NCBI GenBank assembly: GCA_964016885.1
Contig: OZ024755.1
Span: 28,582,001-28,646,000 of the forward strand
Reading direction: 5' to 3'
DNA length: 64,000 bases
Origin: Eledone cirrhosa
Taxonomy: Eukaryota
Shown here piece by piece: positions 15,798 through 54,000 of the stretch. The first letter of the stretch is position 1. Every line of letters begins with the position of its first letter. A program made the position numbers and the translations under genes. A model generated the notes under the pieces. That model ran no database searches. It had not been told where the DNA came from and worked only from the letters and a program-made list of their open reading frames with translations.

Positions 15798-16212
15798 AGA
15801 TCAAAAGATGGTTAAAGGAGTTCCATGTATTTTATTATGCGCATTTCAAAAACAAACATCATCATGCAATAATATTTGTGTTTTCATCAGATAAAACAGG
15901 AGAACATGATATGAAGGCTAAAAAACACTTGTGGATAGTGTAGTTTTAAATCAACATATACATATATACAACTGCACTATCCACAAGTGTTTTTTAGCCT
16001 TCATATCATGTTCTCCTGTTTTATCTGATGAAAACACAAATATTATTGCATGATGATGTTTGTTTTTGAAATGCGCATAATAAAATACATGGAACTCCTG
16101 TAACCATCTTTTGATCTTATATTATGTATACTCCAGTCCTACAAACTGTAGAGTGCTTCTTATCCGATATCTGCATTACTTTATTGTACTACAATAAAAC
16201 TCACCTCCTACA
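15791..16212. mobile_element. Hammerhead-containing non-autonomous element, family B, inverted-arm insertion
   Basis: 15791-15950 is the reverse complement of 15970-16123; copies at 25331, 39812 and 53779; (TA)n flanks. Confidence 0.85.
16019..16085 (+). ncRNA. Type I hammerhead ribozyme, family B
   Basis: uuuuau CUGAUGA [long stem II caaauauuau/augauguuug] GAAA ugcgca UA auaaaa; palindromic stem III AUGCGCAU; mirror copy on the minus strand at ~15830-15896. Confidence 0.8.
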
Positions 16213-25330: not shown

Positions 25331-25554
25331 TGTAGGAGGTGAGTTTTATTGTAGTACAATAAAGCAATGCAGATATCGGATAAGAAGCACTCTACAGTTG
25401 ATTTAAAACTGCACTATCCACAAGTGTTTTTTAGCCTTCATAGCATGTTCTCCTGTTTTATCTGATGAAAACACAAATATTATTGCATGATGATGTTTGT
25501 TTTTGAAATGCGCATAATAAAATACATGGAACTCCTTTAACCATCTTTTGATCT

Positions 25555-25561
<7 letters not shown>
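25331..25561 (+). mobile_element. Family B element (inverted tail piece plus body with HHR at 25456-25522)
   Basis: 25331-25398 is the reverse complement of the family tail (16143-16212); the body matches 15970-16123. Confidence 0.85.
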
Positions 25562-39818: not shown

Positions 39819-40209
39819 AGATCAAAAGATGGTTAAAGGAGTTCAATATATTTTATTATGCGCATTTCAAAAACAAACATCATCAAACAATAATATTTGT
39901 GTTTTCATCAGATAAAACAGGAGAACATGATATGAAGGCTAAAAAAACACTTGTTGATAGTGCAGTTTTAAATCAACATATCATTTTTTTTTAGCCTTCA
40001 TATCATGTTCTCCTGTTTTATCTGATGAAAACACAAATATTATTGTTTGATGATGTTTGTTTTTGAAATGCGCATAATAAAATATATTGAACTCCTTTAA
40101 CCATCTTTTGATCTTATATTATGCATACTCCAGTCCCACAAACTGTAGAGTGCTTCTTATCCGATATCTGCATTGCTTTATTGTACTACAATAAAACTCA
40201 CCTCCTACA
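39812..40209. mobile_element. Family B inverted-arm insertion (HHR at 40016-40082 plus mirror copy)
   Basis: Same outer end points as the 15791 copy but a different central junction. Confidence 0.85.
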
Positions 40210-42865: not shown

Positions 42866-43168
42866 TAATCTATATATATAATAATATATATATATATAAT
42901 AATATATATAATAATAATAAATATATATAATAATAATAAATATATATATATGTATGTATATATATACATATATATATATATGTATATATGAATATATATA
43001 TATATATGTATGTGTGTATATATATATATGTATATATATAAATGAATAAGTATATATATATATATATATGTGTGTGTATATATATAAATAAATATAAATA
43101 TATATATATGTATATATATATAAATGAATAAATATGTATATATATATAAATGAATAAATATATATATA

Positions 43169-44275
43169 TATATGAAGTATAAGAATCAAAGAACTGTTCA
43201 AAACATTATTGTGCTTACAGCTGTTTCCTCCAAACCGAGGTTTGGATTCTTCGGAGCAATTTATTAATGCATGGACAGTTATATGACCTCCTTTTCAGCC
43301 GAGAGACATACCAATACATATTCAAACATTGATACATATTCAAACATTGTGGGTCAACATTCATTACAGAATTTAGAGTGGCAGTACACACTTCGAGATT
43401 ACATTTATATTAATAGGTACAATCAAAAATCAAAGATATAGGTTAAAGTACAACATGAAGATAAGTGGTTATATAGTGCAAATGTTATATGTGTGGCACG
43501 CATGTGCGTCTTGTTTATATAGTGTGGCAGAGAGATATGTGTGGTAGAGGCACTTAGGTAGGTAAATAAGAGTGTTAGGTTGGTAGATCTGGTGGCAAAG
43601 TCTTTATATGATTGATATAGTCTGTGTGTGGAGAAATATTATAAGCATTAAAGATAGTGCAAGCATTAAAAGTGTTATAAGTATTGGAGATGCACAGCGC
43701 AGGGATGTCAAGTAATTCATGTACTTCGGCATTTTCATGGTCAAGGGAGTGTATATTTCGATTATATGCCTTTCACATAATCCACGACAATCCAGTTAGA
43801 GATCGTAGTCTGGTGTTCTTTAGTTCGATACAGGAGGTTGTTACGTTTCGAGAGACGCCATTGAATACCGGAAGTGTGTGTGTGGCTAAGGGGAGTTAAT
43901 GCATGCGGGGAGGTAACTCTGGGGTTTCTATATCTAGCCATTAAAATGTGTCCCAATATAGACCCTAAATTCTATGGTGAGGTGCACCTTCCAAGAGAGA
44001 CTTTTAAAGCATAAAGTGTACTAACTATAGAGTAGTTTAACTAAATTATGCTGAAGGTGATCATATTATTATTAAGGTGGATTAACCCATCTTAAGGTGC
44101 TACAAATGGAAATTATAGATGATGAGCGAGGATTCTAAATTAATGATCTCTGTGGTTGTAGTCTGCTCATATGACCAGGCGCGGTGATTGCAGGATTGCT
44201 TCAGGACCCAATGATCTCTGGTAAGATCTGGGTCATCGCTTGCTACATTGGATGTCGAAAGATAATCGTCCCCAG
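43169..44275 (-). repeat. 1107-bp inverted copy of the element's 3' UTR
   Basis: Mirror ORFs 43684-43899(+)/47789-48004(-) are identical; paired coordinates sum to 91688 at both ends, so no net indel. Confidence 0.95.
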
Positions 44276-44526
44276 CACAATAATGTTTTGAACAGTTCTT
44301 TGATTCTTATACTTCATATAACTGCTCTGTAAATCATCTGATGTTTTTACATTGAGCTACTTAACTTACTGGTAATAAGGTAGTAATACATCACTGCCTA
44401 CCACTATTTAGGGTGTGTGTAAAATACTTACAACTGCTTAAGGTTTTGTGTTTACATAACCATAAATAGTATAACTAATACTATTAACTGCTCCATATCG
44501 TTGAGCTGACATATAATATTGCCAAT

Positions 44527-46986
44527 ATGCTAATCAAAGACCAACTCCCCATGTCAACCAAGAACATACCAATACCATCCAGGAATACATATGAGAAATT
44601 GCTGATCAACAGTGTAAATTCATTTATCAATAGAGTGAGATGGAGGACATTCCATTATGATAGAAACAAATCTAACAACTTGAATAATACTAACAATTTT
44701 GACTCCTTCGGCTTTAAAACCTTTAAAAGCCCCCCTCATAACACTCTACTTAACTCCTTTGAAAATGACCTAGTTAAACTAGTTAAGAACATTAAATACA
44801 ATAAGCACCATATTAGAAGCAACACCTTCTTAAACAAACTTAACACTTCTATTAGTGGATTCAAAACTAGTAATAAAATTATTGTACACGCAGATAAAAC
44901 TAATAACATATACAGCCTAGATTATATTACTTATAGAAAGTTTATATATAAGGAACTACATAAAAGCTACAAAAAAACCACCTTGAAAAACTTAGAAGAT
45001 ATTAATGTAGAGGGTTATAATATAGTGTCTAAACTAGGACTACAGAGGCATACACAACCTTTCACTCCGAACCCCCCTAGATTCTCTCTGAAGGACCATA
45101 AGGAGAACTTCATCAGCAACCCCACGATAAGACTTATCTGCCCTTCCAAGTCCGACATTGGTATTATCAGCAAGAAGATTTTGGATAAAATCATCCCACA
45201 AATTAAACACAAGATACACCTTAAACAATGGGGAAATACGGGTGAAGTAATTGAATGGTTTAAGGATATCAAGAATAATAAGAACAAAAAATTTATTCAA
45301 TTTGATATCAATTCATACTACACCTCTATTTCCCCTATCCTATTAAATAAGGCACTTATCATGGCCATGACCAATAGCGACCTGACTAGAGCCCAGGTTG
45401 ATGTCATCCTTGCGGCCCGTAAAACCATAATCACCTTCGAGGACCAACTATGGACACGCAAGGATACGCACAACAACTTCGACATAACCATGGGATCTAG
45501 TGACTCGGCGCAGGTCACTGATTTGGTCGGCCTATACCTCCTCAATGAAATCCATAAAGACCTCCCTTACCTCAACGGTGGTTTGTACCGCGATGATGCA
45601 CTTCTACTCATAGAATATAAAAAATTTAATATAGAAAGAACTAGAAAACAACTGCATAAGACATTCAAAAACTTTAACCTTAGTATCACCATGGACAAAA
45701 ACACTAAAAATGTTAACTTCCTAGACGCCACACTATACCTAGACTCAAAAATATATACACCTTTCCATAAGCCTAATGAGAAACTTATTTACGTAGATAC
45801 CAAGTCTAATCACCCTAGATCAATATTAAACTCTATCTCTAAGGGGGTGTCCAATAGAATCACTAGTCTGTCCTATGACGCAAACATATTTAGCAAAAAC
45901 TCACAATATTACAATCAAGCATTAGCTAGCTCCGGCCATAATATAGAAATAGAGTTCCTACCTAAGAAAACACATAGCTACAACATCATCTCGCACAACA
46001 TGTCCATGAGGAAATCTAATAATAGGAATAGCAACCACAAGTACACCAAAGCGGAGGGTGCCACCGGAAGTAACCATTACCATGGAAACTACTGTGAGGC
46101 CTTAGGAGGAAGCAACACACCAAACACTAAAAGCAAAAATAGAAGAAGAAATAATACATTTTTCAACCCTCCTTTCAACCTAAATGTCTCCACCAACATA
46201 CCTAGGGCTTTCTTCTCACTACTAGATAAAAACTTCCCTCTAGGACACAAGTACCACAACCTCTTAAACAAAAACACCATTAAAATCTCATACTCTACGA
46301 CGCCTAACTTAACATACCACATAGCTAGCAGCAATAATAGTAAAATTAGTTCTTACTTCCAACAAACAAAATCACAACGGGATGCAAACCCTCTAAATAC
46401 CACTGTAGCAAGCAACAATAGCAACGGCAGTAACAATAGAAATAGCACTAGTATAAGTAATAACACCAGGGTTGTCAACCTGAACACCCAAAATCCTATA
46501 TCCACCACACAGACTTCCGCATTGCATTATAACCAGCGGACTAACGCACAGAATAATTGTAACTGTAGAGCTAATAGAACCTGCCCTTTAGATAAAAAAT
46601 GCCTAACCAAGGATGTCATATACTCATGCACAGTCACGACTAATAACTCTTCAGAAACCTATGTAGGCTCCAGTTCTAACTGCTTCAAAATTAGATATAA
46701 CTCGCACATCCACTCGTTCAAAAAGCACAGCCTAGCCAACTCCACCTCACTTTCTAGCTACATACACTATCTAAAATCTAAAAATAAACCATACACACTC
46801 AAATGGGAAGTGATAGGCAGCGCGACCTCGTACAAACCACCTAATAAATTCTGTAACCTCTGTATACTAGAGACACACAATATTATCTTCTCCAACCGTA
46901 ACCTACTTAACAAAAAATCTGAGGTGTTTGCAACTTGCCAGCACCGCCTCAGACATTCCTTCCAAAACTTTAAGCCCTATATATAG
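44527..46986 (+). CDS. PLE polyprotein: reverse transcriptase plus C-terminal GIY-YIG endonuclease (819 aa)
   Basis: N-term STKNIPIP..FINRVRW; ADKTNN; LKDHK; FIQFDINSYYTSI; MGSSDSAQVTDLVG; GLYRDD; FFNPPF; CNCR..CPLDKKCL; VIYSC..YVGSS; CNLC..E; LLNKKSE..CQH. Confidence 0.96.
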   Translation: MLIKDQLPMSTKNIPIPSRNTYEKLLINSVNSFINRVRWRTFHYDRNKSNNLNNTNNFDSFGFKTFKSPPHNTLLNSFENDLVKLVKNIKYNKHHIRSNTFLNKLNTSISGFKTSNKIIVHADKTNNIYSLDYITYRKFIYKELHKSYKKTTLKNLEDINVEGYNIVSKLGLQRHTQPFTPNPPRFSLKDHKENFISNPTIRLICPSKSDIGIISKKILDKIIPQIKHKIHLKQWGNTGEVIEWFKDIKNNKNKKFIQFDINSYYTSISPILLNKALIMAMTNSDLTRAQVDVILAARKTIITFEDQLWTRKDTHNNFDITMGSSDSAQVTDLVGLYLLNEIHKDLPYLNGGLYRDDALLLIEYKKFNIERTRKQLHKTFKNFNLSITMDKNTKNVNFLDATLYLDSKIYTPFHKPNEKLIYVDTKSNHPRSILNSISKGVSNRITSLSYDANIFSKNSQYYNQALASSGHNIEIEFLPKKTHSYNIISHNMSMRKSNNRNSNHKYTKAEGATGSNHYHGNYCEALGGSNTPNTKSKNRRRNNTFFNPPFNLNVSTNIPRAFFSLLDKNFPLGHKYHNLLNKNTIKISYSTTPNLTYHIASSNNSKISSYFQQTKSQRDANPLNTTVASNNSNGSNNRNSTSISNNTRVVNLNTQNPISTTQTSALHYNQRTNAQNNCNCRANRTCPLDKKCLTKDVIYSCTVTTNNSSETYVGSSSNCFKIRYNSHIHSFKKHSLANSTSLSSYIHYLKSKNKPYTLKWEVIGSATSYKPPNKFCNLCILETHNIIFSNRNLLNKKSEVFATCQHRLRHSFQNFKPYI

Positions 46987-48429
46987 CAATGTCGGACTGG
47001 AACCTAACACCACATCTAGCATCAAACACCAGAGACACACCCTATACTACATACCCAACACTAGCTGATCCATTATAACACAAACAACGACATCCCTCTG
47101 GAACCCTTCGCAGGGAAAATACCCATTTATACCTCTACGGCAGGTGTGACAACATCCACCCACCTGGACGGCACTACACCGCTCTAAGGGTAATTTGAGC
47201 ATGAATTGATCGGTTGGATGGTGTTGGGCAGAGGAAACACCTTCCTTAGACAGATGTAAAATGATTTAATCGAGTAGCGCTGTTGACCAGTAGGACCGGG
47301 CTGCTGAGCGCAATGAGTGAATGCAATGCAACTGCCGTGCGGGTTGTACGTATATGGATGATCTGACGGTCAGAGAGGGGTCGCGAGGACTGCGGATTGA
47401 CCTTTGGCCTGCCTGGGGACGATTATCTTTCGACATCCAATGTAGCAAGCGATGACCCAGATCTTACCAGAGATCATTGGGTCCTGAAGCAATCCTGCAA
47501 TCACCGCGCCTGGTCATATGAGCAGACTACAACCACAGAGATCATTAATTTAGAATCCTCGCTCATCATCTATAATTTCCATTTGTAGCACCTTAAGATG
47601 GGTTAATCCACCTTAATAATAATATGATCACCTTCAGCATAATTTAGTTAAACTACTCTATAGTTAGTACACTTTATGCTTTAAAAGTCTCTCTTGGAAG
47701 GTGCACCTCACCATAGAATTTAGGGTCTATATTGGGACACATTTTAATGGCTAGATATAGAAACCCCAGAGTTACCTCCCCGCATGCATTAACTCCCCTT
47801 AGCCACACACACACTTCCGGTATTCAATGGCGTCTCTCGAAACGTAACAACCTCCTGTATCGAACTAAAGAACACCAGACTACGATCTCTAACTGGATTG
47901 TCGTGGATTATGTGAAAGGCATATAATCGAAATATACACTCCCTTGACCATGAAAATGCCGAAGTACATGAATTACTTGACATCCCTGCGCTGTGCATCT
48001 CCAATACTTATAACACTTTTAATGCTTGCACTATCTTTAATGCTTATAATATTTCTCCACACACAGACTATATCAATCATATAAAGACTTTGCCACCAGA
48101 TCTACCAACCTAACACTCTTATTTACCTACCTAAGTGCCTCTACCACACATATCTCTCTGCCACACTATATAAACAAGACGCACATGCGTGCCACACATA
48201 TAACATTTGCACTATATAACCACTTATCTTCATGTTGTACTTTAACCTATATCTTTGATTTTTGATTGTACCTATTAATATAAATGTAATCTCGAAGTGT
48301 GTACTGCCACTCTAAATTCTGTAATGAATGTTGACCCACAATGTTTGAATATGTATCAATGTTTGAATATGTATTGGTATGTCTCTCGGCTGAAAAGGAG
48401 GTCATATAACTGTCCATGCATTAATAAAT

Positions 48430-48476
48430 TGCTCCGAAGAATCCAAACCTCGGTTTGGAGGAAACAGCTGTAAGCA
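48430..48476 (+). ncRNA. Minimal type I hammerhead of the PLE, variant core CCGAAGA
   Basis: ugcu CCGAAGA a-uccaaacc-uc-gguuugga-g GAAA cagcug UA agca; palindromic CAGCUG; mirror copy 43212-43258 (-). Confidence 0.8.
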
Positions 48477-48683
48477 CAATAATGTTTTGAACAGTTCTTT
48501 GATTCTTATACTTCATATAACTGCTCTGTAAATCATCTGATGTTTTTACATTGAGCTACTTAACTTACTGGTAATAAGGTAGTAATACATCACTGCCTAC
48601 CACTATTTAGGGTGTGTGTAAAATACTTACAACTGCTTAAGGTTTTGTGTTTACATAACCATAAATAGTATAACTAATACTAT
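48473..48683 (+). repeat. 3' copy of the 211-bp pseudo-LTR
   Basis: Matches 44274-44484 (offset 4199). Confidence 0.95.
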
Positions 48684-48777
48684 ATATATATATGTATATA
48701 TATATATAAATGAATATATATATATGTATATATATATATAAATGAATAAATATATATGTATATATATATATAAATGA

Positions 48778-48838
<61 letters not shown>

Positions 48839-48933
48839 TATATATATATATATATATATATTCATATATATATATATATATATATATTCATATATATATA
48901 AATGAATAAATATATATATATATATATAAATGA

Positions 48934-49049
<116 letters not shown>

Positions 49050-49110
49050 ATATATGTATGTATATATATATATATACATACATATATATATATATATATA
49101 ATAATAATAA

Positions 49111-49151
<41 letters not shown>

Positions 49152-49412
49152 ATCTATATATATATATATAATAATATATATAATAATAATAAATATATAT
49201 ATATGTATGTATATACATACATATATATATATGTATATATGAATATATATATATATATATGTATGTGTGTATATATATATATGTATATATATAAATGAAT
49301 AAGTATATATATATATATATATATGTGTGTGTATATATATAAATAAATATAAATATATATATATGTATATATATATAAATGAATAAATATGTATATATAT
49401 ATAAATGAATAA

Positions 49413-49447
<35 letters not shown>

Positions 49448-49514
49448 AATGAATATATATATGTATATATATATATAAATGAATAAATATATATGTATAT
49501 ATATATATAAATGA

Positions 49515-53694: not shown

Positions 53695-53934
53695 AACGAA
53701 GGAGTTGTGGTAAGGAACAAGGTGGACCATAACGCACCAGAGTACTCAATACTTAAGGTAGTAAAGTGGGTAATATGTAGATTTAAAACTGCACTATTCA
53801 CAAGTGTGTTTTAACCTTCATATCATGTCTCCCTATTTTATCTGACGAAAACGCAAATGTTATTGCATGATGATATTTGTTTTTGAAATGCGCATAATAA
53901 AATAGATGGAACTCTTTTAACCATCTTTTGATCT

Positions 53935-53941
<7 letters not shown>
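53695..53941. mobile_element. Chimeric insertion: inverted family A tail plus family B body with HHR
   Basis: 53695-53775 is the reverse complement of the family A tail; 53779-53941 is the family B body (CTGACGA at 53842). Confidence 0.8.

Positions 53942-54000
<59 letters not shown>

Follow-up and report, generated by a model that had tools for sequence, protein, structure and literature searches.

Structure of the element

The 64,000-nucleotide (nt) stretch of the Eledone cirrhosa genome analysed here, which we call the window (assembly GCA_964016885.1, contig OZ024755.1, positions 28,582,001 to 28,646,000 of the forward strand), holds a Penelope-like element (PLE) at 43,169 to 48,683, with one open reading frame (ORF) for a reverse transcriptase (RT) and pseudo-long terminal repeats (pLTRs) that carry a variant hammerhead ribozyme motif. 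Young insertions of its family show a one-base-wide peak of 5′ ends at the predicted cleavage site, and we consider it rather likely, from comparison of sequences, that in vivo ribozyme cutting of a small share of templates (~1% of passes) would be the cause of this peak.

Positions in the 4199-nt unit are numbered from the predicted cut, U1 being 48473 and 44274, and U-1 being 48472. The segments 44274-44484 and 48473-48683 form a 211-nt direct repeat of 100% identity at a spacing of 4199, and the 1107 nt of 43169-44275 match 47413-48519 in inverted orientation without a single difference (100%). The sense arm opens at 44274 with AGCACAAT, i.e., with the sequence that lies directly after the GTA at 48470-48472. 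The initial annotation of this DNA had noticed that the upstream pLTR copy starts at the base after the predicted cut, which our analysis confirms, the repeats being 100% identical, and that the first two nt of the sense arm (AG) are common to the inverted segment, which is equally correct. However, the claimed match to the nucleotide stands only as the farthest reading, since the AG overlap allows the true end of the sense arm to be U1, U2, or U3. The downstream hammerhead was traversed intact in both arms of this copy (hereafter the window copy), and (TA)n flanks both of its outer ends (Table 1). The inverted arm stops at U-1060 (47411-47414 correspond to U-1060 to U-1063), and arms at loci L023, L203, and L048 stop at U-1062/-1063, one of them having been scored U-1052 in another run; U-1060 to U-1063 is possibly a further breakpoint hotspot.

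Table 1. Features of the window copy and of its immediate flank (+, forward strand; -, reverse strand)
Feature	Position	Strand	Remarks
Inverted, 5′-truncated arm	43169..44275	-	Starts at RT start site U47, crosses the hammerhead, stops at U-1060; 2-nt AG overlap with main arm; 100% inverted repeat
Hammerhead copy within inverted arm, junction uncut	43203..43263	-	Mirror of 48425-48485
Upstream pLTR remnant U1-U211, first base at predicted cleavage site	44274..44484	+	100% direct repeat
TAACTGCTC motif, U46-54, adjoining the U47 insertion end	44319..44327	+	Two occurrences only in the 4199-nt unit
Second TAACTGCTC motif, U212-220, adjoining the U211 insertion end	44485..44493	+	Motif search of unit
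Intact 819-aa ORF: RT, CxCX5C linker, C-terminal GIY-YIG-like endonuclease	44527..46986	+	Motifs, 314 homologues
3′ untranslated region; distal part is pLTR in other copies	46987..48424	+	
Predicted type I minimal hammerhead, C4 core CCGAAGA, A.G at stem II base, 7-8 bp stem II, palindromic stem III	48425..48485	+	Predicted cut 48472/48473
Downstream pLTR U1-U211; its end, in (TA)n, is RT start site U211	48473..48683	+	
(TA)n-type microsatellite target	48684..49500	.	Like the repeat at the left end, 43000-43168

A peak of 5′ ends at the predicted cleavage site

The evidence that carries our interpretation is a genome-wide count of breakpoints in the young subfamily, obtained with a pattern equally sensitive to breaks at 25 positions (U6 to U-19), whose filter the window copy fails and from which it is thus excluded. 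After removal of 4 indels from the 64 matches, 60 breakpoints remain, 16 of which (at 14 loci) fall at U1, while the remaining 24 positions have a mean of 1.83 and a maximum of 6 (P = 1.2e-9 for the excess at U1 in a binomial test, 2.6e-8 in a negative binomial test on the 14 loci). The counts adjoining U1 are low (U2 3, U3 2, U-1 1, and U-2 2), and the flanks of the 14 loci are unrelated. At two of these loci (L072 and L078) U1 is the end of both arms, with untemplated AT filler linking them, and at L076 the ends are U1 and U2. A transcription start at U1 was considered and rejected. A capped RNA start leaves an extra C in the complementary DNA (cDNA), and this cap-type extra base was found in 0/16 of the U1 junctions. 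A literature search, which left most subscription papers outside its reach, returned no report of such a 5′-end peak at a hammerhead cut.

A complementary genome search, for U1-22 preceded by a base other than A, gave 24 matches, of which 17 are breakpoints (15 loci), 6 are substitutions, and 1 is a deletion. The window copy alone among these 17 runs into the ORF; the others are U1-47 or U1-211 pieces. The A before U1 is kept in 2120/2144 arms, ~99% of arms running on over the hammerhead junction, and a breakpoint at U1 occurs in 17/2144 (0.8%), and the rate of stopping there is alike on both passes over the hammerhead, the second-pass figure being 1/89 of those reaching U1 (the window copy).

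Copies that reach the ORF behave differently from what the initial annotation had anticipated, namely that mapping their 5′ ends would place them at the cut and not across the pLTR. Exact U203-227 junctions into the ORF exist at 132 places, and among the best 100 of these, besides the window copy, 0/100 start at U1, 88 read through the upstream hammerhead (ending between U-3 and beyond U-2998), and 12 stop at U7-U188. The 5′ ends of 13/92 ORF-reaching copies lie in a 42-nt stretch just upstream of the hammerhead (U-56 to U-97), near which first-pass arms also frequently end (6/64 in U-50 to U-99); this cluster may correspond to a transcription start within the pLTR. One further copy (L202, G000:C3:133892500-133900500) has two ORF-start junctions 4199 nt apart and so exceeds two passes of the hammerhead region.

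A variant hammerhead motif conserved across related families

Read directly, the motif follows the plan of a type I minimal hammerhead, with CCGAAGA (48434-48440), stem II (48442-48459), GAAA (48461-48464), a palindromic stem III, ACAGCTGT (48464-48471), and a GUA triplet. Every position of the core C3 U4 G5 A6 N7 G8 A9 ... G12 A13 A14 A15.1-U16.1 H17 is matched except for a C at position 4; the G10.1-C11.1 pair is replaced by A.G, and related families have other non-pairing combinations there. An Rfam scan reported no hammerhead family up to E 5, all matches being microsatellite driven, and the fold of the monomer is no better than that of shuffled sequences (z -1.43). When two copies are co-folded, the prediction is a dimer with stems I, II, and III at -35.1 kcal/mol, versus -11.7 kcal/mol for the monomer. 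Among the 223 copies from the fetched loci, the CCGAAGA core is present in 218 of the 222 that were scored, and the stem III variants (ACAGCTGT, ACAGTTGT, and ACAATTGT) are all self-complementary. Stems I and II and a palindromic stem III are all present, with covariation. Diverged families from this genome retain C(T/C)GANGA, a stem II that pairs with a changed sequence, GAAA (AAAA in one copy), and a GUA or GUC triplet, and one related family has the canonical CTGAAGA core. Because the core, a paired stem II of other sequence, and the triplet are retained in diverged families, the motif is, by this comparative measure, conserved as a structure. The U4C change is described in PMC3088659 as a natural variant with considerably lower activity in vitro, yet sufficient in a viroid. 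In five copies (L063, L064, L066, L068, and L074) GTG replaces the GTA triplet; these are predicted to be uncleavable and form a natural control class.

Two fixed 3′ ends, probable RT start sites, that occur in pairs

The 3′ ends of arms and their pairing were counted at loci that had been chosen for other purposes. Among the 401 arm 3′ ends counted, 205 fall within U44-48 and 184 within U204-214, and 96 of 107 two-armed inverted insertions combine one U47 end with one U211 end, whereas combinations of two U47 or of two U211 ends were never seen. U47 (48519) and U211 (48683) are 164 nt apart, and TAACTGCTC occurs in the unit only at U46 and U212; a third, imperfect copy of the motif at U-66 does not serve as a start for RT (1 match). 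Junctions at L024, L015, L063, L080, and L254 often contain tandem TATGAAATA-type units taken from the U39-47 end, which suggests repeated slippage in priming.

Arms that are paired in one insertion have 90 non-reference bases in common versus 44 discordant ones (33 pairs). The upstream and downstream repeats within a copy, scored for 18 of 20 copies, differ at 108/22333 positions (0.48%), versus 2.83% between copies, and recurrent alleles agree between a copy's two repeats in 194/210 cases, a single copy accounting for 13 of the 16 misses. This closeness of the two repeats indicates that one stretch of RNA is regularly copied twice, as would happen on a circle, although the pattern could equally result from template jumping or gene conversion. 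The repeats within a copy (L429-L448) are alike in the manner of retroviral LTR pairs.

Origin of the peak

Several observations weigh against ribozyme cutting as the cause of the U1 peak. The core is altered by U4C and by the absence of the G10.1-C11.1 pair. Roughly half of the 16 U1 breakpoints have shared bases that would allow the end to lie at U2 or beyond, and one junction, with an overlap of 1 nt, recurs at 3 of the 14 loci. Breakpoints are distributed unevenly, with joints drawn to palindromes. Over a wider range of positions (100 of 186 matches), U7 with 12 and U10 with 10 breakpoints, mostly two-arm joints via a 2-nt overlap, stand beside U1 with 11 and U-4 with 9, and the stem II palindrome holds 10 two-arm loci plus an excess smeared over U-18 to U-21 (101 of 107 matches scored). 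The older subfamily has only 1 of 30 breakpoints at U1 (31 matches, 1 indel dropped; P 0.71), and no peak is present in a second hammerhead family, whose core is canonical (about 5 of about 54, counted by eye in 100 of 217 matches, in an AT-rich context and with an extra filter base). Finally, the study on the anole element reports no RNA-seq reads starting or ending at the cut (PMC11167929). The ending of both arms together near U1 does not count as proof of a cut template, because the stem II palindrome likewise gathers joint ends (10 loci); the evidence that we retain for U1 is limited to the single-base peak and the filler joints. In the older subfamily, which comprises at least 543 arms, there are three loci with both arms ending within U1 to U-4 and A/T filler, L410 with both arms at U1 and a three-base filler and two further loci with both arms within U-1 to U-4.

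These additional hotspots raise the alternative that U1 is a structural or sequence hotspot without cleavage, either because RT stalls before the intermolecular stem III helix, whose 3′ edge is U-2, or because the cDNA is trimmed to the first T after GTGC able to pair with an A-rich partner. The hotspots at U7/U10, at U-4, and inside stem II would fit, as would the lack of a peak in the older subfamily, whose stem III is weak (-3.4 vs. -11.1 kcal/mol), and the 1-nt A that several U1 joints have in common. However, the stronger stem II has no peak at its 3′ edge (U-12 to U-14: 1, 1, and 2), and its excess is smeared within the helix whereas the U1 peak is one base wide. Likewise, the average at the other A/T-ending positions, 13 in number, is 2.0, the second family lacks a peak despite a stem III that is palindromic and GC rich, and the joints with both arms at U1 carry filler, not homology. 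We therefore regard a hotspot of this kind as unlikely, if still a serious contender. The stem III palindrome, which is perfect and directly precedes the cut (-9.6 kcal/mol as DNA), yielded no two-arm joints, whereas the U4-13 region (-2.6 kcal/mol) has many, which is expected if some cDNAs stop at U1 before stem III.

For the window copy itself, ordinary random 5′ truncation might simply have landed on U1 (or U2-U3, given the AG overlap), whether the ribozyme is active or not. The 5′ ends of ORF-reaching copies are indeed scattered from U188 to beyond U-2998, including the 12 of the best 100 that stop within U7-U188, and the finding was selected for its coincidence. Against a background of ~1.8 breakpoints per position, though, the 16 at U1 imply that ~89% of U1 ends belong to the peak, whatever its cause, which makes chance an improbable explanation. 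The coincidence in this single copy rises above chance because of the genome-wide excess at U1 (16/60), and because U1 is such a sharp 5′-end hotspot the window copy probably came from a template cut at its upstream hammerhead. To this extent the initial annotation, which saw the template as a ribozyme-cut transcript copied to its very end, is probably right. As a description of the family it is not, since none of 100 other ORF-reaching copies starts at U1. That the cut unit transcript is the family's normal template, so that complete copies start at the cut, has the window copy itself in its favour and is scarcely credible in view of the 88 of those 100 copies that read through and of the near-universal retention of the A before U1 (2120/2144 arms). 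Similarly, the claim that the locus provides genomic evidence of in vivo activity of a CCGAAGA-core hammerhead went too far for a single copy, which cannot show activity and whose coincidence is weak; the family-wide peak offers indirect support, not proof.

Cutting of a minority of templates would fit into the following mechanism. The endonuclease would nick both target strands in (TA)n, RT would prime one cDNA at U211 and the other at U47, both on RNA from a single donor, and the cDNAs would be joined at their ends via short microhomology; priming of both strands at two internal start sites is assumed by analogy with what is described for the anole element (PMC11167929). RT would mostly pass over an uncut hammerhead junction and often do so twice on one sequence, which would point to a circle or a template jump. 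Since the hammerhead needs a stem III partner and has a weakened core, cutting would be rare, and an RT reaching an open cut would stop at U1, leaving mini-insertions (U1-47 or U1-211) or, as in the window, a unit plus a 211-nt copy. As the cut lies shortly before the start sites, dead mini-insertions would result from any template whose only ribozyme has been cut, and the window copy would require an RNA that was still intact when first passed and open by the second pass. The bulk of templates would be uncut or re-ligated RNA. We offer more tentatively, as a possibility that we rate below even, a model in which the hammerhead cuts tandem transcripts and re-ligates them to a 4199-nt circle, on which a dimeric RT would prime both strands (U47 and U211) and roll more than once round to generate the pLTRs, the ~1% of U1 ends being templates caught open.

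Family placement and relation to known systems

The ORF contains RWR (38), DKT (123), YRDD, CNCRANRTC (678, CxCX5C), VIY...YVG, CNLC (776, CxxC), and CQH (804, CxH); GxKF was not found in its 819 aa, in a search that did not cover GxKY. A Pfam scan gave no significant family and a PDB sequence search nothing significant, while the domains carried by the 314 homologues are PF26215, PF00078 in one, and PF01541 in one. A single ORF with RT and GIY-YIG, pLTRs arising from partial tandems, an inverted 5′-truncated arm, and a tail are the marks of endonuclease-positive (EN+) PLEs, and the RWK-like motif, DKT, the CxCX5C linker, CxxC, CxH, and insertion into (TA)n are those of the Hydra clade (motif definitions as in section 11 of PMC8557442). 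By its motifs and (TA)n target, the element matches the Hydra clade of PLEs. The family is both young and large, with 2986 exact matches to U17-38 in the 3.0-Gb assembly and many copies that are at least 99% identical.

Comparison with the Hydra clade of C-terminal EN+ PLEs, as described in Craig et al. 2021 (PMC8557442), reveals similarities and differences. Both have a single ORF with RT and C-terminal GIY-YIG, the same RWK-like/DKT/CxCX5C/CxxC/CxH set without GxKF, a (TA)n target, pLTRs, an inverted 5′-truncated arm, and a hammerhead in the pLTR. However, elements there are generally <3 kb, whereas the unit here is 4.2 kb; the PLE tail is 30-40 bp there and 164 nt here (U47-U211); and hammerheads are reported as canonical there while the core here is not (C4, A.G at the stem II base). 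The role of PLE hammerheads is stated to be unclear in the same source, and a model in which they cut, ligate, and generate a circular template was already proposed in PMC4209133. The PLE hammerheads of that study, like ours, sit in the pLTR, combine a long stem II and a short stem I with a palindromic stem III, and are predicted to dimerize, low activity being a further likeness; U4C and the missing G10.1-C11.1 pair are features found here, and that paper states that in vivo evidence is absent.

The closest functional parallel is Poseidon PAc from Anolis carolinensis (Frangieh et al. 2024, PMC11167929), which belongs to another clade. In that element, the tail is delimited by a pair of internal RT start sites that lie downstream of the hammerhead cut, priming takes place on both target strands, the target is AT rich, and unprocessed RNA is the main template; cleavage is dispensable in this one reconstituted PLE system. 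What differs is that no reads begin or end at the cut there, whereas a genomic 5′-end peak is seen here, and that the start sites here lie 164 nt apart, each beside TAACTGCTC, with one of each used in 96/107 two-armed insertions.

Hammerheads, pLTRs, inverted arms, and tails of PLEs are already known; what is added here is the variant core, a quantified 5′-end peak that coincides with the predicted cut, and two start sites whose pairing is strict. In R2 elements, the ribozyme cut defines the normal 5′ end. Here, unlike in R2, the cut accounts for ~1% of ends, with the ribozyme located a short distance upstream of the RT start sites. The likeness to R2 non-LTR elements with 5′ hepatitis delta virus (HDV)-like ribozymes, as outlined in PMC6765202, is that a self-cleaving ribozyme sets a 5′ end of the template. 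A one-base 5′-end peak among thousands of young insertions would amount to germline evidence that a hammerhead with a weakened core cuts, in ~1% of passes, and breakpoints can be counted in this way in any long-read assembly. Direct predictions for in vitro priming follow from the strict U47/U211 pairing and from the recurrence of TAACTGCTC.

Other hammerhead repeats

The window also contains fragments of a second and abundant family of hammerhead repeats, at 16000-16170, 25440-25560, 39989-40127, and 53809-53947 (+), plus two minus-strand copies. This family has a canonical CTGATGA core and a stem III of ATGCGCAT, and its fragments end in (TA)n. Several additional hammerhead families are present in the fetched loci.

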